From Patescibacteria group bacterium UBA1400 (GTDB taxonomy: Bacteria > Patescibacteriota > Microgenomatia > UBA1400): a stretch of 43,536 nt of DNA. Position 1 is the stretch's first letter, and each line of letters begins with the position of its first letter. Location: the NCBI GenBank assembly GCA_002305125.1, contig DBQG01000001.1, forward strand, positions 1-43,536, given 5' to 3'. The translations under genes and the position numbers were made by a program. Shown in pieces: positions 1 to 18,777 of this stretch. The notes under the pieces are model-generated. The model worked only from the letters and a program-made list of their open reading frames with translations. It had not been told where the DNA came from and did not search any database.

Positions 1-1650
1 TGCCTGAGCAATACGAAAAGCCAGCCCTGACCATTTTTCTTTAACTTCGTCGTCCATTGCACTCATAGCCATTTCTCTCCGCCAACCGCTTTGAGTAAAT
101 GGTCCTCCTGCCATATTAAAATTAACCACATCAATAAGTCTTAAATTTAATGGATCAACTTTACCCCCCTGTTCAAATAGTTTTTGAATTTGTTTACGAC
201 TGGAAAAAGGCAATGCCTTTCCCTCAGTGACCATAAACATTAAAAAGTTGGCTGCTTCATCACCATCCTGATATTTTTCTAAAAAATGTTCAAAAGCATC
301 TAGGGGTCTGACAAAATCCTCATAAGCAGGAGAAACAACGCCGGGAAAATTAGGATCCTGAGGAAGTCTGCCTCTGGCTACCATTTCCGGCATTCTTAAA
401 ATCAGCATTTCATAGCCTTTACCAATGCTCATTGCTCTTCTAACTCTTTGCTCTGACCACTCCTTTTTAAACTGCTCATCATCCAGTCCATATTTTGCTT
501 TTATCACTTTTTCCATTCTGCCTCTTACCCACTCATCCACATCGCTTTCTCTATCATGAGCGCCGTACAATACGCTTTCTGAAGGAATCCAGTTTCCATT
601 TCTTGACCTTATGGTAGTCATACCAACTTCATAAAGTCTGGCCGCCAGCTCCACTTCTTCTTCTTTAAAAAGCTGATCAAAAAGATCGGGAGTAAACCTT
701 TCCATCATGTGTTCAAACTCTTCAGGCTTGGCCGCTCCATGCTCTACTGCAGCCAGTCCGTCATGAACCATCTTTCTCATTTTTAATCTAGCACTATACT
801 CGTTTCTTATTTTCTGTCCTTCCTGACCAGGAATAGCTGTCAGCTGTAGCATAAATTCTGCTGCCTTATTTAACTGATCCATACCCATGTTTCTTAAAGC
901 GTCTGAAGAGAATTCGCTAGGAAAAGCATCAACAATTGCAAAATATTCTTCAAATACCTGTTCTCTAAAATCTCTACCTGTTGCACCAATATCTTTTATT
1001 AAAGATTTTTCCCTATCAGAAAAAAATTCATATCTACTTTTTCTAGATTGCTCTTCCTGGCTTAGCATCCTATCCGCTTCAGCCTCTGTCAGTCCTTGAT
1101 TATCCATTAGCATTTGCTTTTTAATCTGCCTAAAGGCTGCTTCTTCTTCTGGAGTTCTTACTTTTCCAACATCTCCCTTAGTAAGTAAAATTCTATCTAG
1201 TTCATTTTTTTTCTCTGATAGAGTGGTTGTTAATCTGTGCCTGGCAATTTCATCAAGTTTCCAATCAAAATCTTTGGGCTGAGCCTCAACTTGCCTAGTT
1301 AGCCTTTCGCTGGCTCTAGCTAGTGCCACTCTAGCCTGGGCTTTTTTGTCTCCTAAATCCTCAGAAGAAGCTTTTCTCAACTCCTCCAGCGCATCTTCTA
1401 CCTGCTGATCAATACTTCTCCTTATCTCTTCTGTTTGTTTGCCATAATCTGTTTGTAAAAATCTTTCAACTCTTTCGTTTCTTTCTTTAAGAGACTCCTG
1501 AAGTTGTTTTTTTTCCTCTGCAGTAAGTTCTCTTTCTCCCTGTTTGTCGGTTAGATTTCTTATTTTTTCTAAAAGCTGATGAAAAGAAGCAAGCAAAGCA
1601 CTAAAGCCCTTTTTTTCTTTTTTAGAGTTTTCTGTCTCTCTCTCAGTCAT
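1..1650 (-). CDS. large hypothetical helical protein, N-terminal 550 codons (3' end lies beyond the left window edge)
   Basis: Hand translation of the minus strand from ATG at 1650..1648 is open to position 1 (MTERETENSKKEKKGFSALLASFHQLLEKIRNL ... EKWSGLAFRIAQA). It is absent from the ORF track because it has no stop inside the window. Its ATG overlaps the stop of the upstream riboflavin kinase gene by 8 nt (ATGACTGA). E/R/K-rich with no domain I recognise. Confidence 0.6.
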   Translation of the reverse strand, partial: MTERETENSKKEKKGFSALLASFHQLLEKIRNLTDKQGERELTAEEKKQLQESLKERNERVERFLQTDYGKQTEEIRRSIDQQVEDALEELRKASSEDLGDKKAQARVALARASERLTRQVEAQPKDFDWKLDEIARHRLTTTLSEKKNELDRILLTKGDVGKVRTPEEEAAFRQIKKQMLMDNQGLTEAEADRMLSQEEQSRKSRYEFFSDREKSLIKDIGATGRDFREQVFEEYFAIVDAFPSEFSSDALRNMGMDQLNKAAEFMLQLTAIPGQEGQKIRNEYSARLKMRKMVHDGLAAVEHGAAKPEEFEHMMERFTPDLFDQLFKEEEVELAARLYEVGMTTIRSRNGNWIPSESVLYGAHDRESDVDEWVRGRMEKVIKAKYGLDDEQFKKEWSEQRVRRAMSIGKGYEMLILRMPEMVARGRLPQDPNFPGVVSPAYEDFVRPLDAFEHFLEKYQDGDEAANFLMFMVTEGKALPFSSRKQIQKLFEQGGKVDPLNLRLIDVVNFNMAGGPFTQSGWRREMAMSAMDDEVKEKWSGLAFRIAQA

Positions 1651-2068
1651 TGTTTTTATTATACATTTTTACTAAATTTTGGCCAATTAATTTAGACCTG
1701 TTTATGTCTTTTCTAATTTGCTCTTGAAGTTCTTTTTTTGTTTTAAAAACCATTACAGGCCTTAAAAAGGCCAGAAGCTGAAAAAATATTTTTTCTCCCA
1801 ATTCAACCTCATCTTTCAGATTAAAAATAAATATTTCTGCTACCAGCTCTTTTTCTTTGAAAACGGGCCGTGGGCCATAATAAAGCAATCCTGTTTTCAT
1901 CTCCTTGCCTAATTTAACTCTACACAGAAAAACTCCATTTTTAAAAGGAAAGTTTTCTTTTAAGTTTATAGTCGGAAAGCCTAGTTTTTTTCCCCTTCCT
2001 TTCCCCTTAACCGCTGTTCCAAAAAACCATTTATCTGTTACAATATTTTTAATGTTTATCGCTGCCAT
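1643..2068 (-). CDS. riboflavin kinase (RibF C-terminal-domain-only, monofunctional)
   Basis: GKGRGKKLGFPTINL matches the riboflavin kinase G-x-GRG-x-x-LG-x-PT-x-N signature. Start trimmed to ATG at 2068 (MAAINIKN...) because the 31 upstream codons of the track ORF look non-coding. No N-terminal FAD synthetase domain is present. Confidence 0.8.
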   Translation of the reverse strand: MAAINIKNIVTDKWFFGTAVKGKGRGKKLGFPTINLKENFPFKNGVFLCRVKLGKEMKTGLLYYGPRPVFKEKELVAEIFIFNLKDEVELGEKIFFQLLAFLRPVMVFKTKKELQEQIRKDINRSKLIGQNLVKMYNKNND

Positions 2069-2765
2069 AATTTTCCTTACCTTAACTATTATAATTTTTT
2101 TTACTTCACAGGGTTTGATTAAAAATCTTTTTAAAAACTTTTTTCTTTTAACTAAAAACAAATTAGCTGCTATTCAGATTATAACCTGGTTTTTGCTTCC
2201 AGGAACAGTAATCCATGAACTTTCTCACATGTTGGTGGCAGAAATTTTGGGCGTCAGAACCGGAGCATTCAGTTTTATCCCTGAACAAATAGATGAAACG
2301 AGGTTTAAGGTCGGCAGTCTTAAAATAAATAAAACTGATCCTTTCCGCTATACCCTTATAGGATTGGCTCCTCTTTTGTTGGGTCTTATTATTGTTTTTG
2401 CTGTTTTTAAATTTGGTCTTGAGTCTTTTTTTAGAAATCCTTCAAGCTTTTTTTCTCTTCATGTTTATCTTAAAATCTTTTATCTTTTTTTGACTTATTT
2501 GCTTTTTACTGTTATCAACACCATGTTTTCTTCCCAAAAAGACCTAGAAGCAGTCCTAATTCCCCTGGTCTTTTTTTTGATTTTACTTACTAGCCTTTGG
2601 CTTGCCAGGTTTGAATTGTCTTTTTCCCATCAAACTTTAAACCTAATGGCCGACATTATTGCTGATTTTAACAAAGCTTTATTTCTGGGGCTGATTCTAA
2701 ACCTACTGGTCTTAGGATTAACCAAGCTGATAAATTTTGTTATCATAAAAATATATGGCCACTAA
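2052..2765 (+). CDS. polytopic membrane protein with HExxH zinc-metalloprotease-like motif
   Basis: Track ORF 1905..2765 trimmed to ATG 2052 (MFIAAIIFLTL...). Several hydrophobic helices and the motif VIHELSHMLVAEILG. An in-frame TTG at 2115 is an alternative start. The 3' end overlaps the next gene by 11 nt. Confidence 0.6.
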   Translation: MFIAAIIFLTLTIIIFFTSQGLIKNLFKNFFLLTKNKLAAIQIITWFLLPGTVIHELSHMLVAEILGVRTGAFSFIPEQIDETRFKVGSLKINKTDPFRYTLIGLAPLLLGLIIVFAVFKFGLESFFRNPSSFFSLHVYLKIFYLFLTYLLFTVINTMFSSQKDLEAVLIPLVFFLILLTSLWLARFELSFSHQTLNLMADIIADFNKALFLGLILNLLVLGLTKLINFVIIKIYGH

Positions 2766-5700
2766 AAAAACCTTTGCCCAACTCCTTAACCAGCAGGGTG
2801 TTCCTTTGGTCAAAACAATTGTTTATCAGCTAAATGATCCCAAAAAAGAGTTTTTTGTTTTTAACGGTGAAAAAATCACAAAACAAGAAGCAGAAAATGC
2901 TTTAAGAGGATGGGCCAATGCTAATTATCCCGAGATATTTCCAAGAACTTATTTTTTAACTGAAGACTATTCTCTGCCTGTTTTCCTAAGTTCTCTTTTA
3001 AAAGAAATTCAAGCTGCTCAACCAGAACAAAGCCTGCCTGCTATTGATAAATTGGCTGCCTGGCAAAAAGCCCTGGAAGAAGATGAACAGTGGAGAGATA
3101 CCTTAGCCTATGCCAGCTCTCATGACCTTGATTATCTGTCTCAGCTTGATTTGGAAAACCAGCTTAAATTAATCAATCAAGTACAACAACAAACTAAAGC
3201 CCAGGTTCAGGTAAGCCAATCTGACCGTCTAAACAAACTACAGACTCATTGGCAAACTTATCTTCCAAATGAACAACAAGAAGAAATCTTGTCTTCTATT
3301 GTAGAACATGTTACTCAAGAGGTTGTTAATGCTCAACAAGAAATAGAGCATCAAAGCTTGCAAGAACCTGAAACTAGTAAACAAGAAAGAAACTCTGTTG
3401 TTTTTAACCAAGATTTTTTTCAATTATCCTTACAGGGTTTGTGCGAACAAGACCAAGAGATTGCTGCCGCCCTACCCGTTAGTGAAAGAAGAAAATTAGC
3501 AGCTGTTTTAGCTGAAAGTAGCCTAACTACTACTGATCCTAAAACCCTAACAAAAGCTCACCGTGCTTTAAATGAGGCGGCTATAAGGCTTGATCTTAAC
3601 AGGGAGGGAGTAATTACTGCTGTGGGAAATACTCTTGGTTTAGAAGAAAGAAAGGCTCAGGAATATGTTAATTTGCTTGAAGCCAATCTTCCCTCCAATC
3701 CTTCCCCAACCACTAGACAGACTTTAAAGGCAATGGAAACAAGCTTAAACGACCTTGATGTTTTAACCAATGCCTCCCTGGTTGCTTCAGAAACCGATCT
3801 TTTAGCCGCTCAAAGACAACTAGCTCCTTTAATTAAGAACTACTATCGGGCCCTACCTTTAGCTCAGGTCGAGGGTTGGCAAAATATGCCTGTTTCTAAG
3901 CAGGCGCGCTTATGGAGTAAAAGAATTAGCAAATTAGCCAAAGAAAACGGCTGGAAAAATCTGCAAAATTTAGATCCTGTTGTTGTTGAAAACTTGTTAA
4001 GGGGTATTGGTACAAAAAAATTAGAACAAATACTTGAGCAGCAGGGAGAAAAAATTAAGGGTTCCACTGAAGATGAAGAGGTTAAAAAAGCTAAAAATCG
4101 AAAAACTAAACTTCTGCGCCTTTATTTTAAAATTGAAAGTCTAGAAAAACTTCTTAAAGATAAAAATCTTCCCCTTGCTTTTAGACTTAATGTTAGGGGA
4201 GCTGCAATTAAGGCTGCTTTTTTAGAATTTTCAGAAAAGGTTAATCCTTTTAAATTGTCCTTTTACAATTATCATATGCCTGGACCAACCCAGTTTGCCG
4301 TCGGCAAACTTAAAGCTTTTAATAAAAAATGGAACTATCTTAACAGAGAAACTCCGTTGGGTTTTATTTTTGCTCCCTTTTTTAAAATTAGACAGGCTGA
4401 TTATAAATTTTACTCTTGGCGCTGGAAACAATGGGGAAGGTTAGTAGGTAAAATTTCTCTGCCTGGTTCAAGCAAACACAGTTTCCTTTATCAACTTCCT
4501 AATAAGCTTAAACCTTCTCACTGGTTAAGACCTGTTTATTGGGGAAGGATTGGAGCCGGCAAAGCAATGAGCTGGATAGGATCAAAGCTGGGTCAACAAG
4601 CCCTGGGAAAAGCCTTTAGTTTCCTGGGAAAAACATTTTTAAACTACACCTTTAAGGGTATGTTTAAAAAACTTCTGAGCACTGGTTTGGGCCTAGCTTT
4701 AAAAGGGTTAATTGGCGCCGGAACAGGAGGGATTGGCATTGTTATTGGTGTTGCCAGCACGCTTTTAAATTCTCAAAAAATAAAGATGCTTTTAAAAACC
4801 GCTGCCACGGGGGCAGTAATTTTGCTTGGTGCCGCCATCGGCTGGCTGGCCTCTCATATTTTTACTATGGCAGGCATGATTTTAGGAGCTAAGGTGGGTG
4901 GTATTTTAGGCTTCATGGTAGGAGGAACTTTTGGATTTGCCCTTGACAGCCTCATTGCTTCCATGGGAGGAATGCCTGAGGTGGCTGCTGCTGCTGGAAA
5001 AATTGGGGGAAGTGCGGCAGGGTTCTTGCCTGCTGCTGCCTCTTCTTTTGCCACCTCTTCTGTTTTAGGAACAACCATTGTTGTAAGCGGTGGTTCCGCC
5101 CTTATAGGAACCTCTGTTGCTTATGGCCTTATTCAACACAATACTTCTTCTGCCTTTGTTTCTCCTCCAGACATTACTGCAGAAATTGCCCCAGAAAAAA
5201 AACCTTTAATTGTCCAAAAAAGCGCCCTTCCTTCCACTGCTAAACCAGGAGACACTATTACCTACACTATTTCTCTCACTACAGGCACGGGCAACATTAC
5301 GGAAATAAAACTAACCGACGATATTGATCAGCAAAGCTTAACCAACATCCAAGTTAATCCACCGGCCTCCTACAATCCCTCTCAAATTAACGGAGAAATT
5401 GTATTAGAAGGACTTGAATTAACGTCTCCAGGATCTACTATTAATTTTTCTTATACTGTCCAGGTTAAAAATGACATTGATCCGAACACCGTCATTTTTA
5501 ATAAAGCTGTTGTTACGGGTTTACATGAGAATCAAACCATAAGTCAAACCGCAACTTTTTCTTTAAATAGCGATGGATCTGATATTGCCAAACGGGCTAA
5601 AGAAATTACTAACAATTTAGAACGAGGTTTTTGGGACTTTTACAATTATTCACCTGATTATCCCGAACTTTTTGACCAGGTTGAGTTTGCCTGTTGCCCT

Positions 5701-6144
5701 AATCATTGTTATTCTTGCGTTAGCTATCCCGACGTTTGTGAACCCGAAAATTGCAGTGGCAACCCTAGCGACTTACAAAAAGCAGACTCTTTATTTTGGT
5801 GTACTTGGCTGCCGATTAAAGCATATACAGAAACAGGACATTCTATTGGCAAACATTTGGGGGTTGGTTCTTTAAAAAACTGGTTTGAACAACAGGGAAG
5901 ATTTTTGCCCTCCACAACCCGGGTTACCGATCTTAAGCCTGGTTATGTTATTTTTTTTCAAAAACAAAACAGTCAGGGAAGTACCTACTGGGCTCACACC
6001 GGGGTTGTTTGTGAGGTTTATCCAGACGGCATCCAGGTTTGTGAATCTAACAACTATTGTAAATTTTGCGATTATACTGCCTCTCAACAGGGACATGTTC
6101 AGAATAAAGGTAGTTTAATTATAGGAGGGTATGGAACTCCGTGA
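2755..6144 (+). CDS. 1129-aa multidomain T4SS-associated protein: Q/E-rich helical N-half, Gly-zipper membrane region, DUF11-like repeat domain, Cys-rich linker, C-terminal CHAP peptidoglycan hydrolase
   Basis: Long uninterrupted ORF. Residues ~640-795 (nt ~4672-5139) are Gly/Ala-rich hydrophobic (GLGLALKGLIGAGTGGIGIVIGVAS, GAKVGGILGFMVGGTFGF). TAKPGDTITYTISLTTGTGNITEIKLTD (nt ~5197-5559) resembles the DUF11 'conserved repeat domain'. The C-terminus (nt ~5782-6141) has CHAP-like catalytic context: FWCTWLP (Cys) and YWAHTGVV (His). Confidence 0.85.
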   Translation: MATKKTFAQLLNQQGVPLVKTIVYQLNDPKKEFFVFNGEKITKQEAENALRGWANANYPEIFPRTYFLTEDYSLPVFLSSLLKEIQAAQPEQSLPAIDKLAAWQKALEEDEQWRDTLAYASSHDLDYLSQLDLENQLKLINQVQQQTKAQVQVSQSDRLNKLQTHWQTYLPNEQQEEILSSIVEHVTQEVVNAQQEIEHQSLQEPETSKQERNSVVFNQDFFQLSLQGLCEQDQEIAAALPVSERRKLAAVLAESSLTTTDPKTLTKAHRALNEAAIRLDLNREGVITAVGNTLGLEERKAQEYVNLLEANLPSNPSPTTRQTLKAMETSLNDLDVLTNASLVASETDLLAAQRQLAPLIKNYYRALPLAQVEGWQNMPVSKQARLWSKRISKLAKENGWKNLQNLDPVVVENLLRGIGTKKLEQILEQQGEKIKGSTEDEEVKKAKNRKTKLLRLYFKIESLEKLLKDKNLPLAFRLNVRGAAIKAAFLEFSEKVNPFKLSFYNYHMPGPTQFAVGKLKAFNKKWNYLNRETPLGFIFAPFFKIRQADYKFYSWRWKQWGRLVGKISLPGSSKHSFLYQLPNKLKPSHWLRPVYWGRIGAGKAMSWIGSKLGQQALGKAFSFLGKTFLNYTFKGMFKKLLSTGLGLALKGLIGAGTGGIGIVIGVASTLLNSQKIKMLLKTAATGAVILLGAAIGWLASHIFTMAGMILGAKVGGILGFMVGGTFGFALDSLIASMGGMPEVAAAAGKIGGSAAGFLPAAASSFATSSVLGTTIVVSGGSALIGTSVAYGLIQHNTSSAFVSPPDITAEIAPEKKPLIVQKSALPSTAKPGDTITYTISLTTGTGNITEIKLTDDIDQQSLTNIQVNPPASYNPSQINGEIVLEGLELTSPGSTINFSYTVQVKNDIDPNTVIFNKAVVTGLHENQTISQTATFSLNSDGSDIAKRAKEITNNLERGFWDFYNYSPDYPELFDQVEFACCPNHCYSCVSYPDVCEPENCSGNPSDLQKADSLFWCTWLPIKAYTETGHSIGKHLGVGSLKNWFEQQGRFLPSTTRVTDLKPGYVIFFQKQNSQGSTYWAHTGVVCEVYPDGIQVCESNNYCKFCDYTASQQGHVQNKGSLIIGGYGTP

Positions 6145-6635
6145 TAAAAAACTTTCTCAATAAAATAAACATTAAAGTTATTATTTTTGCTTGTTTCCTA
6201 TTTTTAACAACAGTGCTTGTTTTTGCTTATTTTTTAACTAAAAACTCCTCCACTAATCAACCCCTTCCTTCTTTAAATCCAAATCTTAAAACAAAAATAC
6301 CTTCTCAGTCTAAAGCGCAAGAAGATTTTTCCAGGCTTGATAAAGAGATTAAAATAGAGAAGGTGGACCCTCCAAGCATTGGCAACGAACTTAAAAGCAT
6401 TTATCAGCAAAACCCCTGGCTAGAACAACTTCCTTTAAGAACTAAAAGGTATGTTATCTTATATGACTGGGAGCTTAAATCTATAAGAATAAGAATTATT
6501 GTAGATGCTTCTTCCTCTATTTCTTATGATAATCAAATTAAAAGCATAAAAGAAGAGGCCTTAAAAAACTTACAAAAAATAGGCGTAGATATTAATAAGG
6601 TTCCTTTTTATTATGTTGTCTCGCCTTTTAATTAA
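6141..6635 (+). CDS. small N-terminally membrane-anchored hypothetical protein (T4SS-like cluster)
   Basis: GTG start overlapping the previous stop (GTGA). N-terminal hydrophobic helix VIIFACFLFLTTVLVFAYFL followed by a soluble domain. No recognisable motif. Confidence 0.6.
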   Translation: MIKNFLNKINIKVIIFACFLFLTTVLVFAYFLTKNSSTNQPLPSLNPNLKTKIPSQSKAQEDFSRLDKEIKIEKVDPPSIGNELKSIYQQNPWLEQLPLRTKRYVILYDWELKSIRIRIIVDASSSISYDNQIKSIKEEALKNLQKIGVDINKVPFYYVVSPFN

Positions 6636-6703
6636 ACAAGCTATCTAATTTGACCCCATTTGTTATCTTTTCAAGCTTAAAGCTTTCTTGTTATACTTTT
6701 AAT

Positions 6704-7780
6704 ATGAAACAACATCCTGTTCCTCAAAATATTTCTTCTTATCAATTTAGGCTTATAGGAGAAATGACCCTTAAACAATTTTTAGAACTTATTGCTGGCT
6801 TTATTGCTGCCTGGCTTATTTACACTCTTAATGTGCCTGTTTTTATTAAATTTCCATTTATTTTTCTGGCTATTATGGGAGGCGTTGCTTTGGCTTTTCT
6901 TCCCATTGAAGAGCGTCCTTTAGATGTTTGGATCGTTAACTTTTTCAAAGCTGTTTATTCTCCCACTCAATATGTCTGGAAAAAACGCAATCCTATTCCT
7001 CTTGTTTTTCAAAATACAACTTATTATCACCCCCTCTTAAACAAACAAACAAAAGAGCTAAAAAAAGACAGGGGCAAGCTGGAAGAATATTTAAAAACCC
7101 TTCCCTCATCTTCTCTCGTTAAAAGTACAAATAAGATTGAAGAAGACGAAGATGTTAGGTTAAAAAATATTTTTAACCTGCTTGGCCCCTCTCCTTTAGA
7201 CAAAAAAAGAGTTAATGTTCCCGGGGAAGGAAAGGCTGTCATAAAAACAAAAATAAGACAGCTAGCTCCTCAAACAGATATAAAAATTGTCCCTAAACAG
7301 GTTTTTCCAAAAGAAATTGCTGTCCCCGAAGAACAAGTTTTTAAAAAATCTTTGAAAAAAGCCGCCCCCGCCACTGGTCCCATTGTTAAACCGGCTCCCC
7401 GTTTAAATCCACCAATTTTAGTAGATTCAACCAAAGAAGAAAAACTTGATCCGTCTGTGGCTGCTCAATTCTCAACCACTCTTCCTATTCCCCAAACTCC
7501 AGAAACACCTAACCTGGTGGTAGGAATGGTAATAAGCGATTATGACAAAATTATTACTGGAGCCTTAATTGAAATTCTTAATCAAAACAATGAAACCGTG
7601 AGAGCTTTAAAAACAAACAAGCTAGGGCAGTTTTTTTCTGCCTCTCCATTAAACAGCGGTGTTTATCAAATTAAAGTTGAACATCCCGGATGGGAGTTTG
7701 ATATAATCAAACTTAAGGCAGAGGGAAAAATAATTCTTCCCATTAAGATAAAAGCAAAAAATAGAAAAAAAGATCCTTAA
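6704..7780 (+). CDS. PrgI-family (VirB3-like) membrane protein with C-terminal carboxypeptidase-regulatory-like beta-sandwich domain
   Basis: Trimmed to ATG 6704 (MKQHPVPQNISSYQFRLIGEMTLKQFLELIAGFIAAWLIY). This N-terminus plus two TM helices is the pattern of PrgI-family proteins of Gram-positive T4SS. The C-terminal segment VGMVISDYDKIITGALIEIL...TNKLGQFFSASPLNSGVYQIKVEHPGWE (nt ~7511-7753) fits the CarboxypepD_reg pattern. Confidence 0.7.
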   Translation: MKQHPVPQNISSYQFRLIGEMTLKQFLELIAGFIAAWLIYTLNVPVFIKFPFIFLAIMGGVALAFLPIEERPLDVWIVNFFKAVYSPTQYVWKKRNPIPLVFQNTTYYHPLLNKQTKELKKDRGKLEEYLKTLPSSSLVKSTNKIEEDEDVRLKNIFNLLGPSPLDKKRVNVPGEGKAVIKTKIRQLAPQTDIKIVPKQVFPKEIAVPEEQVFKKSLKKAAPATGPIVKPAPRLNPPILVDSTKEEKLDPSVAAQFSTTLPIPQTPETPNLVVGMVISDYDKIITGALIEILNQNNETVRALKTNKLGQFFSASPLNSGVYQIKVEHPGWEFDIIKLKAEGKIILPIKIKAKNRKKDP

Positions 7781-7781
7781 T

Positions 7782-8501
7782 ATGAATCCTGCCCAAGTTC
7801 CTATTAAAGCCAGCACTCAAGAACATCTAGACCTGGAAGATGTTAAAGATAATGTTGTTATCTTAAAAGATGGGTCGTGCCTGATTGTCTTACAAACCAA
7901 TGCCGTTAACTTTGACCTCTTATCAGAAAATGAACAAGATGCCACTATTTATGCTTATGCTGGTCTTTTAAACTCTCTTTCCTTTCCTATTCAAATTTTT
8001 ATCCGTTCCCGCCAAAAAGATATCTCCTCATATCTCAAACTATTAAAACAGCAAAAACAGAAGCAACAATCAGAAAAATTAAAAGAGCAAATAAGTAAAT
8101 ATCAAGAGTTTGTGGAAAAAATGGTTAAAGAGAATGAGGTTTTAGACAAGAAATTTTATGTTATTATTCCTTTTTCTACTTTTGATCTCGGTGTTTCTCA
8201 AACGGTTAAAAAAAGCGTTATTGGAAAAAAGAACCAACTTCCTTTTCCTAAGGAATATATTTTACAAAAGGCAAAAACAAGCCTGCTTCCCAAAAGGGAT
8301 CACATCATAAAACAATTTACTAGAATTGGTTTAAAAATCTCCCAATTAAACACAAGACAACTTGTAGAACTTTTTTATGATATTTATAATCCAGACTTAA
8401 AGGCTCAAAAATTAAGAGCTGCCGACGAATATTCTAACTTTGTTGTTGAACCAAATATTAAAGATCAAGAAGATAAAAAAGATAAAGAAACCAAGGATTA
8501 A
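7782..8501 (+). CDS. hypothetical protein resembling the N-terminal domain of Gram-positive VirB4/ConE-type ATPases (no ATPase domain)
   Basis: VPIKASTQEHLDLEDVKDNVVILKDGSCLIVLQTNAVNFDLLSENEQDATIYAYAGLLNSLSFPIQIFIRS follows the IP..x..DG..x..INF.L..x.Q..I...LN.L...IQI pattern at the N-termini of Tn916/ICEBs1-type VirB4 proteins. No Walker motifs. Starts 2 nt after the previous stop. Confidence 0.65.
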   Translation: MNPAQVPIKASTQEHLDLEDVKDNVVILKDGSCLIVLQTNAVNFDLLSENEQDATIYAYAGLLNSLSFPIQIFIRSRQKDISSYLKLLKQQKQKQQSEKLKEQISKYQEFVEKMVKENEVLDKKFYVIIPFSTFDLGVSQTVKKSVIGKKNQLPFPKEYILQKAKTSLLPKRDHIIKQFTRIGLKISQLNTRQLVELFYDIYNPDLKAQKLRAADEYSNFVVEPNIKDQEDKKDKETKD

Positions 8502-8507
8502 TTTGTT

Positions 8508-10472
8508 ATGAACTTTATTTCCAATCTTTTACCAACTAAAAAACAAAAACCTTCTACTCAAAAAGAAGAAAAAGTCCTCAAAAATAATGATAAAACCGAG
8601 GTTTCCGGCAATTCTACCGAAGCTAAGGCAGCAATTGAGAGCTTAACAAATGGCCTTACTTCTATTAAAGATGTAATTGCTCCCCCTTCTTTAGAGGTTG
8701 ATTTTTCCCATATTAAAATTAATCAAACCTATTATCGTACTCTATTTGTGGCCGGTTTTCCCCGTTTTGTTAATGCTAACTGGCTGGCCCCACTAATTAA
8801 TTTTGATCATCCTTTAAATATTTCTATGTTTATTTACCCTGTTGAAGTTAAAGAAATTTTAGATGATTTAAAAAGAAAGATTGGAGAAATGGAGGCCGAG
8901 GTTCAAACCGACATTCAAAAAGGTAAAATTATAAATATCGATACTCAGGTTAAACTGGAAGATGCTCATGATCTTCAAAAACAGTTGGCCAAAGGAGCGG
9001 AAAGGTTTTTTCAGTTCGGCCTTTACATTACCATCGCTTCAAGGTCAGAAAAGGAACTTAACAGAATTAGCCAACAAGTACAGTCGGCCCTGGGTTCTGT
9101 TATGATTGTTTCTAAAGTTGCTTCTCTTCAAATGGAAGATGCTTTTAAAACCACTCTTCCCACTTGTACAGATAAACTTATGATTACAAGAAATATGGAT
9201 ACCACCAGCCTTGCCACTACTTTTCCCTTTACTTCCTCAGAATTAACCTCCAATGAAGGAATTTTATACGGGATTAATGAACATAATGACTCTCTGGTTA
9301 TTTTTGATCGCTTCTCTCTTGAAAATGCCAACTCTTTAATTTTAGCCAAAAGCGGTTCGGGAAAAAGCTATTTGGTTAAGCTGGAAATTCTGCGCTCTTT
9401 AATGTTTGACACCGAAGTTATTATTCTTGACCCCGAAGGAGAATATAAAACTCTGTGCGAAACTGTCGGTGGTTCTTATATTGATTTTTCTTTTGATTCC
9501 AGCTCTAAAATAAATCCTTTTGATCTGGCTGCCCGACAAGAAGAGGGCGAAAATGAATTAGGTTTAAAAATACTGTCTCTTCATTCTCTTTTTAAAATTA
9601 TTATGGGAAATCTTACCCCTACCCAAGAAGCAATGTTAGATAGGGCTCTTGTTTTAGCCTACAAACAGAAAGGGATTACTGTTGACCCCAACTCTCAAAC
9701 AAAAGAACCTCCCTTAATGGAAGACTTATATAAAGTATTAATTGGTATGGAGCAAAAAGATGCTTTAGAAATGGCCTCAAGGCTGGAAAAGTTTATAAAG
9801 GGTTCTCTGCGTGGTGTTTTTGACCAATATTCTACCGTTGATATTAAAAACCCCTTTACTGTTTTTTGCATTAAAGAGCTTGAAGACGAACTAAGGCCTA
9901 TTGCTATGTTTATTATTCTTGACTTTATTTGGACTAAGGTTAAAAAAGAATTAAAAAGAAGAATTCTTGTTGTTGATGAGGCGTGGTACTTAATGAAACA
10001 TCAGGATTCTGCTACTTTTCTTTATGGAATTGCTAAAAGGGCCAGAAAATATTATCTTGGTCTAACCACCATTACTCAAGACGTTGAAGATTTTTTAAAT
10101 AGTGATCATGGCAAGGCCATTGTTACCAATAGCTCTTTACAAATTTTAATGAAACAATCTCCTGCTGCTATTGAAACGGTGGGAAAGGTTTTTTATTTAT
10201 CTCAGGGTGAAAAAAATCTACTTTTATCTGCTGAGGTTGGTAGGGGCTTATTTTTTGCCGGTAACAACCATGTGGCTATTAGGGCTGTTTCTTCCGAGGA
10301 TGAACATAAATTAATTACCTCAAAACCTCAGGACATCCTTGCTCAACAAAAAGAGGTTGACATTCAGGCTTCAATTAAAAAAGAGCTTGAAGATAATCTT
10401 TCTCAACAATCTTCCAACCCTCAAGAGACTTTAGAAATGATTCAAAAACAAGAGCAGACTTCTAAAACCTAA
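8508..10472 (+). CDS. VirB4/TrbE/CagE-family type IV secretion ATPase
   Basis: Walker A ILAKSGSGKSYLVK, Walker B RILVVDEAWYLM, and the N-terminal YYRTLFVAGFPRFVNANWLAPLI...ISMFIYP motif typical of the VirB4 N-domain. Sits directly downstream of a PrgI-like gene. Confidence 0.9.
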   Translation: MNFISNLLPTKKQKPSTQKEEKVLKNNDKTEVSGNSTEAKAAIESLTNGLTSIKDVIAPPSLEVDFSHIKINQTYYRTLFVAGFPRFVNANWLAPLINFDHPLNISMFIYPVEVKEILDDLKRKIGEMEAEVQTDIQKGKIINIDTQVKLEDAHDLQKQLAKGAERFFQFGLYITIASRSEKELNRISQQVQSALGSVMIVSKVASLQMEDAFKTTLPTCTDKLMITRNMDTTSLATTFPFTSSELTSNEGILYGINEHNDSLVIFDRFSLENANSLILAKSGSGKSYLVKLEILRSLMFDTEVIILDPEGEYKTLCETVGGSYIDFSFDSSSKINPFDLAARQEEGENELGLKILSLHSLFKIIMGNLTPTQEAMLDRALVLAYKQKGITVDPNSQTKEPPLMEDLYKVLIGMEQKDALEMASRLEKFIKGSLRGVFDQYSTVDIKNPFTVFCIKELEDELRPIAMFIILDFIWTKVKKELKRRILVVDEAWYLMKHQDSATFLYGIAKRARKYYLGLTTITQDVEDFLNSDHGKAIVTNSSLQILMKQSPAAIETVGKVFYLSQGEKNLLLSAEVGRGLFFAGNNHVAIRAVSSEDEHKLITSKPQDILAQQKEVDIQASIKKELEDNLSQQSSNPQETLEMIQKQEQTSKT

Positions 10473-10486
10473 AATCTAAATTATTA

Positions 10487-11602
10487 CTATTCTTTTATTC
10501 TTACTGGCATAATAATGTGAAGAAAAGAATTTTTTCCTGCTGGTTTAAAAACCCCCGGTTTAAGGGGCCCTGACAACTCTATTTGAATTTCTTTGGAATC
10601 AAGAATCCCTAAATACTCTTGTAAGAATCTATAATTAAAGGCTATCTCACAATTTTCCCCCTCTTTTTTAATCTCTAGGCTTGTTTTATTTTCTCCAACC
10701 TCAGGGGCATCTGCTTCAATTTCCAGTTTATTTTCAATAATTTTAAATTTAACAATGTTGGCACTGTCTTTGGCTAAAATAGAGGCTGTCTTAACTGCTT
10801 GTTGTAACTCTTCCCTATCCAAAACAATCTTTGTTTCACAATCTTGAGGAATAATTTTTTCAAAGTCAGGATACTCTCCCTCTAAAAGTCTTGTTATAAT
10901 TTCTGCCCCCTTAACCGCAAAAATTATTTGATTGTCGTCTTTTACCATTTCAATTTCTTCTTTTTCTTCCCCCTGTAAATAAACCCTCACCAATTCCATT
11001 AGGGCTAAGGCGGGAATTATTAGCTTCTCATCTTTTTGTTTGGTCTTTAGGTTAATTGTTTTTAAACTCAATCTATAGCCATCAGTAGATGCCAACCCTA
11101 TACTTTCTCCAAAATTCATTTTAACCCCAGTTAAAATAGGCCGTGATTCGTCCTGTGAGGCTGTAAAAGCCACCTGCTCTATGGCTTTTATTAATTTTTT
11201 AGCTTCAAGGCTTACTTTTTCAAATCCCTCTTTTAGTGTTTCAATGCTGGGAACTGCAGGATATTCTGTGGCAGAAATTCCATTAAAAGAGGCCTTATAA
11301 TTTCTACAGGAAACACTTAACTTATCTTTATTAAGCTCAAATAAAACCTTGTCTGCGGGAAGAGAGGAAATAAAATCCACAATTATTCTGGCGGGAATGG
11401 TTATTTTTCCTTCTTGTTCAACTTTTGCCGGCAATCTTAAATTTATTCCCGTTTCAAGATTGGTTGCTGATAATTTTAAACTTCCTTTTTCTGCAGAAAA
11501 TAAAATATTTTCTAAAATAGGAAGCTGGGGTTTTGATTTAACAAACTTTCCTACAATAGAAAGCCCTTTGTTTAAATTTTCCTGTAAAATTGTTAATTTC
11601 AT
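10487..11602 (-). CDS. dnaN: DNA polymerase III beta sliding clamp
   Basis: 371 aa, MKLTILQENLNKGLSIVGKFV..., three-domain clamp length, directly downstream of dnaA. Confidence 0.95.
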   Translation of the reverse strand: MKLTILQENLNKGLSIVGKFVKSKPQLPILENILFSAEKGSLKLSATNLETGINLRLPAKVEQEGKITIPARIIVDFISSLPADKVLFELNKDKLSVSCRNYKASFNGISATEYPAVPSIETLKEGFEKVSLEAKKLIKAIEQVAFTASQDESRPILTGVKMNFGESIGLASTDGYRLSLKTINLKTKQKDEKLIIPALALMELVRVYLQGEEKEEIEMVKDDNQIIFAVKGAEIITRLLEGEYPDFEKIIPQDCETKIVLDREELQQAVKTASILAKDSANIVKFKIIENKLEIEADAPEVGENKTSLEIKKEGENCEIAFNYRFLQEYLGILDSKEIQIELSGPLKPGVFKPAGKNSFLHIIMPVRIKE

Positions 11603-11847
11603 TTGGTTATAAAAAGTATTTTAAACCCTTTTTTATTCTAGCTTCTATTTTGTTTTTATTCAATTATTAAATTAGTAGTATTAGTAGGGGGTGTTTAAAA
11701 GTGGAAAAATGTCTTATTGAGACGTTGTAAAACGCTGTGGAAAACTTGTTTTGTTTTGTGGAAAAGTTTATAAAAAGTTTATAGTTTTCAACTTTTCCCC
11801 AAACAATAAACAATTTCTCTAAAAGTTTTCCACCTACTTTTCCCCAA
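11603..11847. promoter_or_regulatory. oriC-like DnaA-box cluster plus AT-rich stretch in the dnaA-dnaN spacer
   Basis: DnaA-box variants of TTATCCACA: AGTGGAAAA 11700-11708, TGTGGAAAA 11736-11744, TGTGGAAAA 11757-11765 (reverse complement TTTTCCACA), and TTTTCCACC 11826-11834. A degenerate 12-mer ACTTTTCCCCAA is repeated at 11791-11802 and 11836-11847. An AT-rich run lies at 11610-11690. Confidence 0.6.
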
Positions 11848-13239
11848 CTATTCTTCCCCATATATTCTTTTTTTTAGGGCCTCAATATCAAACCTTAAAG
11901 ACTCAGAGGTGATGCTGTTTTTGCTTATTTTTTCAATAGAGTGCATAACCGTAGTATGATCTCTTCCTCCAAAAATTTCTCCTACCCTCATTAAGGGAAA
12001 ATCAAGCTCGGTTTTAAGCAAATACATGGCAACCTGTCGGGGAAAAACAATCTCCTTATTTCTTTTAGGGCCCTTGATTTGATTAAGTTTAATATTAAAA
12101 TAAGAGCAAACAGCCTCAAGAACCTCTTTAGATTTAACATTTTTTTTAGTTTTAGGTTTTTTGTCAGAAACTTTACCCAAAAGCTTTTGTGCCATTTCTG
12201 GAGTAATGGGTTGGTTGGTTGCGTCTCCTTCGGTAATAATTCTAATTAAAAAACCCTCAAGCTTTCTGGTACTTTCTATATTAGAGGCAATAAGCTGGGC
12301 AACGTCCATAGGGAGAGGTCTTCCCCACTGTCTTGACTTAATAAGTAAAATAGCTGTTCTTAGTTCAAAGTTGGGTTGTTGAATGTCTATGGTTAAACCC
12401 CCCTCAAATCTTGATCTTAACCGGTCTTCTAAACCAACAATTTGGTCAGGAAGCTTGTCGCTGGTTAAAACAATGTGTCCTCCGGCCCGGTGAATTGTGT
12501 TAAAGGTGTGGAAAAATTCTTCCTGAACAGTATTTTTACCACCAATAAACTGAACATCATCAATTAATAAGAGCTTGGCCGAACGGTATTTTTCTCTAAA
12601 AGAAGAAGTGGACTTGGTGCGGATGGCATTAATAATTTCGTTGGTAAACTCTTCGGCAGAGGAATAAACAATTAAAGCCCGAGGGTTTTGATTTATGAGT
12701 TGATGACCAATAGCCTGCATTAAATGGGTTTTTCCCACCCCTACCCCTCCATATAAAAAAAGAAGGTGATAGGATTTGCCGGAGTTTTTAATAACAGACC
12801 TGGCCGCAGCATAAGCAACCTCGTTTGAAGAAGAAACGGCAAAATTTTCAAAAGTAAAGTCAGGCCTAAGACCGGTAAATCTAATAGCTTTTTTAATGGA
12901 TCTTTTGTTTTCTTTTTCATAATTTAAAGACAAAAGGGGAGTTTCAGATTTTTTAGTAGATCCTTTGCCATTTAAAAAATCAGGTTTAACGGTAAATTTA
13001 AGTTCATTTTTAAGCTTGGTTAGGTTATCTAAAATTTCTTTTACTTGTCCCAGATATCTTTCTTCAATTGTATTTTTAGCAAAAGGATTTGCTACAGCCA
13101 CCTCTATAATTTGTCTTTTTTCAGAAACCTTTTTAGTGGTTAAAATTTTAGTGTTGGCAAACCATGAAGAAAAAATTGGTTTAGAAAGATTAAGTTGAAG
13201 TTCTGTTAAGGTTGATTGCCAAAGATCTTTATTATTCAT
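11848..13239 (-). CDS. dnaA: chromosomal replication initiator protein DnaA
   Basis: 463 aa. AAA+ Walker A GGVGVGKTHL, Walker B LLLIDDVQF, and C-terminal DNA-binding helix region ...FGGRDHTTVMHSIEKI. Confidence 0.97.
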   Translation of the reverse strand: MNNKDLWQSTLTELQLNLSKPIFSSWFANTKILTTKKVSEKRQIIEVAVANPFAKNTIEERYLGQVKEILDNLTKLKNELKFTVKPDFLNGKGSTKKSETPLLSLNYEKENKRSIKKAIRFTGLRPDFTFENFAVSSSNEVAYAAARSVIKNSGKSYHLLFLYGGVGVGKTHLMQAIGHQLINQNPRALIVYSSAEEFTNEIINAIRTKSTSSFREKYRSAKLLLIDDVQFIGGKNTVQEEFFHTFNTIHRAGGHIVLTSDKLPDQIVGLEDRLRSRFEGGLTIDIQQPNFELRTAILLIKSRQWGRPLPMDVAQLIASNIESTRKLEGFLIRIITEGDATNQPITPEMAQKLLGKVSDKKPKTKKNVKSKEVLEAVCSYFNIKLNQIKGPKRNKEIVFPRQVAMYLLKTELDFPLMRVGEIFGGRDHTTVMHSIEKISKNSITSESLRFDIEALKKRIYGEE

Positions 13240-13373
13240 AATTCTTTTTAAACAATTAAAAATTGAGGGCAGAGGGTTTTTTAACGCAAGGAAAGCCTTT
13301 TGTTTAACATCTTATTTTTAATAAGTTTTCCACAATTTGTCAACCACAACTTACTATATCAAGTTTAAAAAAA
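13240..13373 (-). promoter_or_regulatory. dnaA upstream region with DnaA box(es)
   Basis: TTTTCCACA at 13326-13334 and the weaker TCAACCACA at 13340-13348, in the 134-nt spacer between the 383-aa gene stop and the dnaA start. Confidence 0.45.
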
Positions 13374-14525
13374 TTAACGGGGAGTCTCTGCGGCCACCTC
13401 ACCAACCTTGGCAGTAGCATCAAAGGCAAAAAACAAGGCCATCAGTAGTTTTGTAAAACCATCACCTCCTTTTTTGCCGAGTTTTAAAATATCTTTCCAG
13501 CTCTTTTTATCTTTGGTTAAACCTAGAGATTTTAAAACCTCATTTTGTACTTCTTCTAAGCTTGCTTCGTCAGACACTCTAATTCCGTGTTGGGATAAGG
13601 CCCTTTTGGCCAAAAGAAGAGCTTTTTGATGTTCTTGAGAAGACAGGGATTCTTGTATTTGCCTAAGCCTCTCTTTTATTTCTTCAGTGTCTAGACCCTC
13701 TTCTTCTTGAGCTTGTTTAAAAAGTGCCTCAAAAGCTTCTTCTTCTCCCTTTTTAATTCCTAAAATATCATGAAGATAAGATCTTTCAGTTGTTACAGCT
13801 TCAGGGGAAGCTGTTGCGGCAGGGGGTTTTTCTTGAGAAGAGCGGACTTCCGGCGGTTTGGTTTTAAAAGAATAAGTCGGTGAAAGTTGCTTTTCCGCCC
13901 TAGAAAGAACAGCCGCTTGTTCTCCGGGGGATAGCTCAGTAAAGTTTTTCGAACTTAAATCATCAGCCTGGGCAGCTATTGTCTGAGCCTCCTGGACAAG
14001 CCTGTTTTCAAAAGTATTATAATCAATAGTTTCTCCTCCCAACTCAACCTGTAAACTATTTTTTAATTTTTTTAAAGCCTCTGTAGCCCTCATTTTTAAG
14101 ACAGGATCTTGGGTTTGATCAGCAACTTCTGTTAAGGCAAAAACATAATCTCCTAAATAAATTGTGCCCGGATGTTGGCCATCAGCCTCGTCAATCCAGC
14201 AAAACTCAACAGCCCCACTTTGATCACCTGCAGCCCTAACATCAGCACCTTCTCTTCCCTGTTTTTTTTGTTCTGCTGCCGTTATTGCTCCGGCTACCCG
14301 GTGAGCCTGCTCTACTAATGGTTCTAAATGAGTTCTAGGAATATTTTGAAAGCGTTCTTGTCCTTGAATATCTCCCAATCTTGAGAAAAGGCCAACTTTT
14401 CCGGTGGGGTTTTCTGGTGATAAAATTGCTGGAACTAAAACCCCTTCCACAGCACTATCAAAAGTACTAACTACTTGTTCTCTGGGAAGAAGTTCTGTCT
14501 GGGGAGGTTTTTGTTCTTCGGACAT
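13374..14525 (-). CDS. 383-aa hypothetical protein with C-terminal hydrophobic tail (orphan cassette gene 1)
   Basis: Track ORF 13374..14747 trimmed to ATG 14525 (MSEEQKPPQTELLPREQ...). The upstream 74 codons are antisense to the start of the 1250-aa gene and look non-coding. E/Q/A-rich, ending ...GFTKLLMALFFAFDATAKVGEVAAETPR. No SD is visible upstream. Confidence 0.6.
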   Translation of the reverse strand: MSEEQKPPQTELLPREQVVSTFDSAVEGVLVPAILSPENPTGKVGLFSRLGDIQGQERFQNIPRTHLEPLVEQAHRVAGAITAAEQKKQGREGADVRAAGDQSGAVEFCWIDEADGQHPGTIYLGDYVFALTEVADQTQDPVLKMRATEALKKLKNSLQVELGGETIDYNTFENRLVQEAQTIAAQADDLSSKNFTELSPGEQAAVLSRAEKQLSPTYSFKTKPPEVRSSQEKPPAATASPEAVTTERSYLHDILGIKKGEEEAFEALFKQAQEEEGLDTEEIKERLRQIQESLSSQEHQKALLLAKRALSQHGIRVSDEASLEEVQNEVLKSLGLTKDKKSWKDILKLGKKGGDGFTKLLMALFFAFDATAKVGEVAAETPR

Positions 14526-14556
14526 TTGATTTAATACTAACTTTTTTTTACTTCTA

Positions 14557-14586
14557 TTGCAAGCAATCTTGTTTATATGATATTCT
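14557..14586 (+). promoter_or_regulatory. candidate sigma70-type promoter for the 1250-aa gene
   Basis: TTGCAA at 14557-14562, an 18-nt spacer, and TATTCT at 14581-14586, followed by the SD AAGAGGA and ATG 14604. Lies in the 78-bp divergent spacer 14526-14603. Confidence 0.3.
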
Positions 14587-14603
14587 GATTTTAAGAGGAA
14601 AAA

Positions 14604-18356: not shown

Positions 18357-18368
18357 AAAGGAGTTTAA

Positions 18369-18725
18369 ATGGCAATAGATTTGGCTAGTTTAATAAAAGT
18401 AGCTCCGTTTGCTCAGGAAGATAAGCAACGTCTTTTAGCAAACCTAGACAAGTTAACAGAAGAACAGCAAGTCAGGCTATCTAATGCTGCCTGGAGCTCT
18501 TTAGCACAGGCTTACTATCTTAAGTTAAAATATGAGTTTGATAAGTTAAATCTTGAGATTCAGGAAGGAAAAAGAGAGTTTAATAAAAAAGATTATGATG
18601 AGCTTAAAGAAAGAGTTTTACAAGAATATCTTAAGAAACTTAAATTTGCTGATAGTCAAGAATCCATGAAAAAGTTAAGGGAAGAACTACAAAAACAGAT
18701 GCAAAAAACCTCAATGACTTCTTAA
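18369..18725 (+). CDS. 118-aa helical hypothetical protein (orphan cassette gene 3)
   Basis: SD AAAGGAG 6 nt upstream of the ATG, 12 nt after the previous stop. All-helical K/E/L-rich sequence with no motif. Confidence 0.7.
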   Translation: MAIDLASLIKVAPFAQEDKQRLLANLDKLTEEQQVRLSNAAWSSLAQAYYLKLKYEFDKLNLEIQEGKREFNKKDYDELKERVLQEYLKKLKFADSQESMKKLREELQKQMQKTSMTS

Positions 18726-18777
18726 ATGTTCTTTAGCATTTCTATTTTTTTTCCTCTTTGTTAAAATAAAATAACTT

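Follow-up and report, generated by a model that had tools for sequence, protein, structure and literature searches.

The 43,536-nucleotide stretch of DNA from Patescibacteria group bacterium UBA1400 that was analyzed here (the window) carries a gene cluster for a type IV secretion system (T4SS) at positions 2052-10472. The cluster is real and intact and lies beside the replication origin. We assign it, with a probability of about 0.9, to the Patescibacteria-clade T4SS, which is nested in the MPF-FATA class (MPF: mating-pair formation) of monoderm bacteria. The cluster would represent the form found in Microgenomates-type genomes and would not be a mobile element. The window comprises 43.5 kb of the 44.6-kb Logan contig SRR5321235_36 (window position equals contig position minus 1053). 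As a representative of its kind the locus is neat and typical; it comes from a Beckwithbacteria-like genome of the Microgenomates type, in an ultra-small bacterium of the candidate phyla.

Gene content of the cluster

The cluster consists of six genes on the plus strand, all with intact open reading frames (ORFs), which are co-directional, abutting and tightly packed. In the direction of transcription, the genes overlap at the first two junctions (by 11 and 4 nucleotides) and are separated at the other three by 68, 1 and 6 nucleotides. The convergent dnaN gene is 14 nucleotides away from the virB4 stop codon, and dnaA lies beyond it. The initial annotation of this DNA had described a co-directional set of overlapping or near-abutting genes adjoining dnaN, and each of its elements is found where it had been placed; its count of seven genes has to be corrected to six.

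2052-2765, plus strand: HExxH membrane protein, 237 residues (ORF with hydrophobic segments)
2755-6144, plus strand: giant envelope protein, 1129 residues (domain matches and motifs)
6141-6635, plus strand: bitopic anchored protein, 164 residues (one N-terminal transmembrane helix)
6704-7780, plus strand: PrgI/VirB3-like membrane protein, 358 residues (PF12666)
7782-8501, plus strand: TrsD-like protein, 239 residues (NCBIfam matches; PF26593, TraC-like)
8508-10472, plus strand: VirB4-family ATPase, 654 residues (CD1110 family, NF045971)
10487-11602, minus strand: dnaN, context gene beside the T4SS block
11848-13239, minus strand: dnaA, context gene beside the T4SS block

Conservation in related genomes

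The related set consists of 80 loci (numbered with the prefix L), one genome per species, from Microgenomates-type lineages (Beckwith-, Shapiro-, Woese-, Chisholm- and Gottesmanbacteria). The loci were compared by tblastn and by clustering of their ORFs. Enough upstream sequence is available for 61 loci, and in 50 of these the genes for PrgI, TrsD and VirB4 are contiguous. In 67 of the 80 loci, dnaA/dnaN are located within 6 kb of virB4. The median identity to the window proteins is 67% for VirB4, 50% for TrsD, 42% for DnaA, 40% for YidC, 36% for DnaN and 34% for PrgI. All three proteins are encoded in 65 loci, and in each of these VirB4 is better conserved than either DnaA or DnaN. Because of this linkage to dnaA/dnaN and of a VirB4 conservation that exceeds that of DnaA and DnaN, the T4SS block appears to be a fixed, vertically inherited core machine of the chromosome and not an integrative and conjugative element (ICE). 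Conservation among relatives, a comparison which the initial annotation had proposed, thus extends over 80 species-level genomes and is tied to dnaA/dnaN.

Several related loci (L002, L004, L006 and many others) have Patescibacteria-type content (PrgI-TrsD-VirB4-dnaN-dnaA, with VirB4 at 60-73% identity) but come from metagenome-assembled genomes with other titles ("uncultured Pseudomonadales", "Gammaproteobacteria", "Bathyarchaeia", "Limisphaerales"). These bins are probably mislabelled or contaminated.

The VirB4 ATPase and its separately encoded N-domain

(a) The 654-residue protein matches the CD1110 family (NF045971) with 404 bits (cut-off 325), and the match covers model positions 174-734 of 752. 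A Walker A motif (AKSGSGKS, residues 280-287, nucleotides 9345-9368) and a Walker B motif (ILVVDE, residues 486-491, nucleotides 9963-9980) are both present, which bears out the earlier assignment to the VirB4 family with clear Walker A and B. The nearest solved structure is the C-terminal domain of VirB4 from Thermoanaerobacter pseudethanolicus (PDB 4AG5, E 8e-49). Among the NCBIfam models, CD1110 (MPF-FATA) is followed by the VirB4 of Mycoplasma ICEs (MPF-FATA, 281 bits), F-type TraC (183), VirB4/CagE (102), Bacteroidetes TraG (65), CedB (61) and TcpF (MPF-FA, 24.5).

(b) A collection of 5.8 billion proteins contains more than 8000 homologues of VirB4. The 120 listed have 67-82% identity, and those of them that carry a name are attributed exclusively to Patescibacteria, Beckwithbacteria or Woesebacteria. 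Relatives from outside the Candidate Phyla Radiation (CPR) do not exceed 38% identity; the best plasmid-borne ones are from Bacillota and Actinomycetota (30-38%). Class-specific profile scores, nearest neighbours and a published tree (PMC12102498) all point to a position of VirB4 within a Patescibacteria clade that is nested in MPF-FATA.

(c) The gene directly upstream of virB4 codes for a TrsD-like protein of 239 residues. It matches VirB4_plasma (model positions 109-292, E 1.7e-9), TrsD/TraD (E 5.5e-5) and positions 25-122 of the CD1110 model, and it has a precomputed match to PF26593 (TraC-like). It also aligns with residues 115-185 of an unsplit VirB4 of 786 residues from Paenibacillus. 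In about 70 of the 80 related loci, the TrsD-like gene adjoins virB4. Since the 654-residue protein is devoid of this domain while the smaller protein matches the N-terminal part of the models, the two ORFs make up one split VirB4, the 239-residue protein being the separately encoded N-domain of the same ATPase. The initial annotation had recognized the similarity to a VirB4 N-domain but had called the protein an extra one; the similarity stands, while the protein completes the split VirB4 rather than adding to it.

The PrgI/VirB3-like protein

The protein of 358 residues matches PrgI (PF12666) with 32.3 bits (cut-off 27), so that its earlier description as PrgI-like (VirB3-like) is upheld by profile search. 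Its start at 6704 is backed by the family alignment and the gene call. Two transmembrane helices are followed by a Lys/Pro-rich linker and a C-terminal beta-sandwich resembling CarboxypepD_reg (nucleotides ~7517-7693). The corresponding Pfam model, PF13620, reaches 25.7 bits, which is under its cut-off of 32.3. Among the orthologs from related Microgenomates-type genomes, 61 of 63 match PrgI and 59 of 63 match CarboxypepD_reg. The PrgI proteins of conjugative systems have ~120-130 residues and lack a beta-sandwich, whereas the Microgenomates-type PrgI carries one.

The giant predicted hydrolase, its small partner and the HExxH protein

(a) The giant protein begins with a soluble region of ~640 residues without a signal peptide. 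This region is followed by a Gly-rich, polytopic hydrophobic span (residues 645-793, nucleotides 4687-5133), a DUF11-type repeat (residues 818-924, nucleotides 5206-5526; TIGR01451, 26.6 bits, cut-off 24) and a CHAP domain (PF05257; residues 1011-1099, nucleotides 5785-6051; 28.7 bits, cut-off 26). The Pfam model for DUF11 scores slightly under its cut-off (21.7 bits versus 24.6). The CHAP domain contains the motifs FWCTW (with Cys1016), AHTG (with His1081) and CESNN; with a score above the cut-off and with the Cys and His motifs present, it agrees with the earlier description of a giant protein that ends in a CHAP cell-wall hydrolase. No glycosidase domain was found in the giant protein, whereas hydrolases of the PrgK/TraG(pIP501)/CwlT type usually have a lytic transglycosylase or muramidase domain in addition to CHAP or NlpC/P60. 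From domain content and gene linkage, we infer that this predicted hydrolase is an analogue of PrgK, CwlT or VirB1. The anchor is, however, of a different type: a polytopic Gly-rich span behind an N-terminal region of ~640 residues, as opposed to the single N-terminal helix of the PrgK/TraG(pIP501)/CwlT type.

(b) Among the 80 related loci, 49 have a member of the giant-protein family, in every case linked to the T4SS genes; the gene precedes PrgI in some loci and follows VirB4 in others. All 36 members analyzed share one plan: there is no N-terminal signal or transmembrane segment, the Gly-rich span starts at a median of about residue 650, and ~300 residues are extracytoplasmic. The C-terminal enzyme varies, being Peptidase_M23 in 20 of the 36 members and CHAP in seven, including the window protein. 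When residues 1-800 were searched against 1.84 billion representative proteins (HMMER), only 18 relatives were returned, which gave no hint of a function, and a profile search with the 36-sequence alignment, which is messy, returned three proteins. The N-terminal 800 residues thus look fast-evolving and restricted to the lineage. An AlphaFold2 model of the giant protein, computed from a two-sequence alignment, is unusable (mean predicted local distance difference test (pLDDT) 32).

(c) A homology of the giant protein to VirB6 was considered and rejected. There is no Pfam or NCBIfam match, and the hhalign comparison with a 779-residue protein, which occupies the VirB6 position in a gene cluster from Pontibacillus (see below), came back empty. 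With the 1050-residue protein from the same Pontibacillus cluster, the family aligns over the M23 domain only.

(d) In related loci, the giant gene is always followed by a small partner gene. The partners belong to four families: the 164-residue family (10 loci), a family of ~343 residues at the same position (29 loci) and two smaller ones. The first two are probably related (hhalign probability 83%, E 9e-6). In the window protein of 164 residues, a disordered linker connects the transmembrane helix (residues 13-31) to a small alpha/beta domain at the C-terminus (residues ~80-164), which is in line with the small anchored protein of the initial annotation. AlphaFold2 predicts a helix/three-strand/helix arrangement of ~85 residues for this domain (mean pLDDT 77 for the protein, ~90 for the domain). 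We asked if it might be a VirB8, which has an NTF2-like fold. A Foldseek search of PDB returned nothing below E 0.07, and VirB8, TraM, TcpC and PrgL were not among its matches; a profile search against PDB sequences gave no match. Judged by the predicted model, the protein is not detectably VirB8-like.

(e) The first gene of the block codes for a membrane protein with five hydrophobic helices and the sequence HELSH at residues 55-59, which matches the HExxH membrane protein reported initially. The only loci in which homologues were found are the two closest Beckwithbacteria-like ones (L003 and L004); there, too, the gene precedes that of the giant protein. It was omitted by the Logan gene caller, although it is conserved in these two loci. 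It is a lineage-specific accessory outside the conserved core. Pfam matches are below threshold (19 bits for DUF6350, and E 0.078 for Peptidase_M50 over the HExxH motif), and an identity as S2P/M50 protease is unsupported, the latter match being all that points to it. As a separate observation, the 5' end of this gene (ATG at 2052, plus strand) overlaps by 17 nucleotides with that of a riboflavin-kinase gene (start at 2068, minus strand), which is unusual.

Comparison with known systems

(a) Non-conjugative T4SS are spread over most Patescibacteria (PMC12102498). In Southlakia epibionticum, the T4SS cluster SEML1_0006-0019 is essential for epibiotic growth, as determined by transposon sequencing (Wang et al. 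2023, Cell, PMC10633639). Its composition is Gram-positive-like, coupling proteins and relaxases are not recognisable, and protein export or another role was suggested (PMC10633639). A survey of 3,035 Patescibacteria genomes found 2,425 VirB4 proteins, which group together as a single clade within MPF-FATA (Quinonero-Coronel et al. 2025, Microb Genom, PMC12102498). In this survey, TrsD is the most abundant partner and PrgI/VirB3 is frequent, VirB6 is scarce in Microgenomatia, and VirB8 is almost undetectable. Relaxases occur in only 103 genomes; VirD4-like genes occur in 2,918 of the 3,035 but rarely near virB4. The cluster is often close to dnaA, dnaN, rnpA and rpmH (PMC12102498). A FEMS review from 2025 counts the Patescibacteria systems as a new T4SS type (PMC12857230).

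(b) The window corresponds to this description (PMC12102498) in having a VirB4 of MPF-FATA ancestry with adjacent TrsD-like and PrgI/VirB3 genes, a hydrolase gene beside the cluster, no relaxase nearby and a chromosomal location by dnaA/dnaN. There are also differences. S. epibionticum has a VirB2-like pilin array and VirB6; the window has no such array and no recognisable VirB6. Both components are frequent, though not universal, in the clade. S. epibionticum has a separate peptidase and lysozyme, whereas the window has a polytopic protein of ~1100 residues with CHAP. The C-terminal beta-sandwich of PrgI sets the window apart from S. epibionticum and from the published description of the clade. 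Finally, only 22.6% of the VirB3 homologues from Microgenomatia were reported as virB4-associated (PMC12102498), in contrast to the contiguous trio in 50 of 61 loci among the closest relatives of the window.

(c) The combination of PrgI/VirB3, a CD1110-family VirB4 and a hydrolase of the CHAP or NlpC/P60 type in one operon is shared with the Trs system of pGO1/pSK41 (TrsC, TrsD, TrsE, TrsG), the Prg system of pCF10 (PrgI, PrgJ, PrgK) and CD1110 of CTn2. A separate TrsD-like N-domain is common to the window and the pGO1 subclass. Conjugative MPF-FATA systems, such as that on the Paenibacillus brasilensis plasmid NZ_CP045297 (L084), have a coupling protein (T4CP) of the VirD4 type, a relaxase (MOBP in L084) and replication or integration genes, none of which is present at the window locus. 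Their VirB4 is usually unsplit, with ~790 residues and ~30-38% identity to that of the window. They are mobile, while the window block appears to be a fixed core locus.

(d) The best VirB4 match in the plasmid database (38%) is encoded on an 898-kb replicon of Pontibacillus sp. ALD_SL1 (NZ_CP062975.1, L082, 7483-17036). The split is shared: a TrsD-like ORF of 274 residues (30% identity, E 4e-29) is followed by a VirB4 of 621 residues, and an M23 hydrolase of ~1050 residues adjoins. The surrounding 12 kb contain no T4CP or relaxase, and by its typing the replicon is non-mobilizable. Beyond the content of the window, it has a pilin-like Mbov_0395 gene and the 779-residue protein; a protein of 116 residues is also in the cluster. 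The host belongs to the Bacillota, flagellar genes flank the cluster, and it is not located by dnaA. This cluster appears to be the closest relative outside the CPR and would represent a CPR-like layout of a non-conjugative T4SS outside Patescibacteria.

(e) Archaeal Ced resembles the window in the non-conjugative use of a VirB4/HerA-like ATPase without a relaxase. It differs in that the window ATPase matches CedB far below the cut-off (700 bits) and that CedA-type partners are not recognised.

Proposed mechanism and alternative readings

(a) In the proposed mechanism, the cytoplasmic VirB4 ATPase, made up of the TrsD-like N-domain and the 654-residue P-loop protein, would power assembly or translocation, and the two-helix PrgI/VirB3 protein would hold it, together with TrsD, at the membrane. 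The giant protein would provide the Gly-rich polytopic membrane segment, and its extracellular arm (DUF11 repeat and the CHAP amidase/peptidase) may cut peptidoglycan, so that the own wall is crossed or the host wall is breached. The anchored protein of 164 residues would be the extracytoplasmic partner of the giant protein. That these parts join into one machine is what we infer. By analogy to Southlakia epibionticum, the machine most likely works at the contact between symbiont and host. Protein or effector export is a plausible function, to which we assign a little less than even odds, and conjugation is very unlikely. The initial annotation had favoured a VirB4-centred, non-conjugative channel in a reduced-genome episymbiont; this is supported by the core status of the block and by the published reading.

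(b) Several points weigh against this assignment. No VirB6-, VirB8- or VirB2-like protein was identified in the window (VirB6/PrgH gave no match, and there is no small ORF with two transmembrane helices that resembles VirB2). The clade placement of VirB4 was made by profile scores and nearest neighbours. Essentiality is extrapolated from one strain of Saccharimonadia to Microgenomates-type organisms. The genome beyond the 43.5-kb window may well encode a coupling protein, pilins or a relaxase.

(c) The block might instead be an import machine for DNA or other macromolecules, like archaeal Ced or ComB of Helicobacter pylori, which would feed a nucleotide-auxotrophic symbiont from its host. We regard this as somewhat unlikely. 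DNA or macromolecule import was proposed in the survey, which also notes comF, recG and radA by the T4SS in the class ABY1 (PMC12102498), and the absence of DNA-processing genes of the export type is compatible with it. The similarity to CedB is weak, its 61 bits comparing with a cut-off of 700, just as CedD is matched with 22 bits against a cut-off of 600. CedA-like or ComB-specific partners were not recognised in the window, and the sequence gives no sign of transport direction. Natural transformation of S. epibionticum needs comEC, which is dispensable, whereas the T4SS is essential (PMC10633639, PMC12857230). The T4SS is thus separate from ComEC-dependent uptake, a result with which the import of other cargo would still be compatible.

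(d) It is also conceivable, but improbable, that the block is mainly an apparatus for pilus assembly or attachment, in which VirB4 builds a host-contact filament from VirB2-like pilins encoded elsewhere. The pilin array of S. epibionticum is essential (PMC10633639, PMC12857230), and the pilin-like Mbov_0395 gene is part of the Pontibacillus cluster, the closest relative outside the CPR. As the window contains no candidate ORF for a pilin over its 43.5 kb, the locus itself does not give direct support to a filament.

(e) A transfer module of an ICE or of a degraded plasmid, with relaxase, T4CP and integrase located beyond the window, is highly improbable and is already largely refuted. VirB4, PrgI, TrsD and the wall hydrolase are homologous to conjugation proteins of Gram-positive bacteria, and the left end of the contig is only ~3 kb upstream of the module. 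However, the block occupies the same chromosomal site by dnaA/dnaN in the large majority of the species-level genomes, with a VirB4 that is more conserved than DnaA and DnaN (see above), and relaxases are rare among the surveyed Patescibacteria genomes (PMC12102498). DNA-processing genes were searched with proteins from a Paenibacillus plasmid (FtsK-like, VirD4 CD1115, MOBP relaxase, MobC, integrase and RepA) and an Embleya plasmid (T4CP and replication-relaxation protein). These queries were run against all ORFs of the window and of the 80 loci with 10 kb on either side (1.39 Mb), using single-sequence phmmer, which has limited reach. Within these 1.39 Mb, no match was obtained for relaxase, integrase, RepA, MobC or FtsK. 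The Embleya T4CP query alone gave matches, which are confined to three of the 80 loci (L022, L040 and L080), the window having none. These three loci have a VirD4-like gene within 10 kb of virB4; in L080, its neighbours are rnpA and yidC. Part of the clade thus seems to keep a T4CP near the origin-region cluster, which is a further point in favour of an ICE. For the window, the lack of a coupling protein refers to 43.5 kb of one 44.6-kb contig and not to the genome.

The other genes of the window are housekeeping or uncharacterised; no DNA-processing family and no relaxase Pfam family was matched among the proteins scanned. When 105 representative proteins from the neighbourhoods were scanned against Pfam, the 25 entries listed out of 64 were all of housekeeping or uncharacterised families. 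Searches of the window for tRNAs and Rfam families gave no match, and the search for att-like, oriT-like or inverted repeats gave only short, AT-rich chance matches. The GC content of the block is like that of its surroundings. The initial annotation had reported that the window is devoid of a relaxase, coupling protein, integrase, oriT-like repeat and replication gene, and these searches found none either. Its conclusion that this is not a conjugative element is strengthened by the core location beside dnaA/dnaN, by the conservation of VirB4 and by the lack of DNA-processing genes nearby.

(f) That the block is what is left of an ancient T4SS, decaying and without function, might be suggested by a VirB4 split over two ORFs and by the failure to recognise VirB6, VirB8 and T4CP at the locus. 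This reading has practically no probability left and is refuted by the conservation pattern: the six ORFs are intact and packed, no damage is seen in the Walker motifs or in the Cys/His motifs of CHAP, the TrsD/VirB4 split is kept in about 70 of the 80 genomes, in Pontibacillus and in pGO1-type systems (PMC12102498), and the identity of VirB4 is above that of DnaA.

Origin region and flanking genes

(a) The minimum of the cumulative GC skew falls in the dnaN/dnaA region, and motifs resembling DnaA boxes (TTTTCCACA) are found at 11736, 11757, 12507 and 13326. Because of the skew minimum and these four motifs, the replication origin was placed in this region. An inverted pair (11756-11776 and 13315-13335) flanks dnaA. 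Positions 11603-11847 and 13240-13373 together probably form a bipartite oriC. The Logan record has a 64-residue "gene" at 11667-11861, which overlaps the DnaA-box-like motifs and is unlikely to be a true gene. Being on the plus strand to the left of the origin, the T4SS genes are transcribed head-on to replication. Promoter and terminator scans gave counts no higher than those for shuffled sequence.

(b) Between dnaA and rpmH/rnpA, at 13374-19740, there are four ORFan genes, which code for a protein of 383 residues (minus strand), a coiled-coil protein of 1250 residues and proteins of 118 and 320 residues (plus strand). None of the four has a Pfam family. The GC content of this stretch is ~0.40, compared to ~0.34, and the GC skew is strongly positive. 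Two of the ORFans are candidate accessory genes:

18369-18725, plus strand: orf118, 118-residue protein (homologues beside T4SS genes; weak evidence)
18778-19740, plus strand: orf320, 320-residue protein (homologues beside T4SS genes; weak evidence)

Homologues of orf118 are located just upstream of the HExxH and giant genes in L004 and just upstream of PrgI in L023. A homologue of orf320 is located in L003, to the left of the flavokinase, HExxH and giant genes. Because these homologues adjoin T4SS genes, the two proteins may be accessory factors or substrates of the T4SS. For the coiled-coil ORFan of 1250 residues, no homologue was detectable across the 80 loci. A relationship to the large proteins which precede the orf118 homologues in L004 and L023 was considered, but no similarity was found.

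(c) Upstream of the T4SS block and divergent from it, positions 1-1650 (minus strand, running to contig position 1) code for a protein of 901 residues without a Pfam family. Many related loci have an unrelated minus-strand ORF of 700-1300 residues at this position, and a sequence homologue was found only in L023.

Significance

Non-conjugative T4SS of Patescibacteria were already described between 2023 and 2025, and the window adds one more example. Minor additions are the swap between M23 and CHAP on the hydrolase of ~1000 residues, together with its partner gene, the beta-sandwich of PrgI, the negative test for VirB8, a conservation of VirB4 above that of DnaA, and the CPR-like cluster with a split VirB4 on a Pontibacillus replicon.

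It is tempting to speculate that the Microgenomates-type T4SS is a distinct sub-architecture, although taken as a whole this is rather unlikely. One protein of ~1000 residues would combine the roles of VirB6 and VirB1, with a cytoplasmic N-terminal region, a polytopic Gly-zipper domain and an extracellular enzyme, M23 or CHAP by exchange, that is aimed at the host wall. The variable small anchored partner and the beta-sandwich PrgI would work with the giant protein, and the ORFans at 14604-19740 might be accessory factors or substrates. If this were true, a hydrolase aimed at the host wall would explain the rapid divergence of the giant protein and the swapping of its domains.

The hydrolase swap, the PrgI beta-sandwich and the conservation of VirB4 could guide structural and biochemical work, while the overall picture is unchanged. 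Among T4SS, that of Patescibacteria was the first to prove essential to the bacterium which carries it, and few other envelope machines are conserved in this huge radiation of mostly uncultured, host-dependent bacteria.

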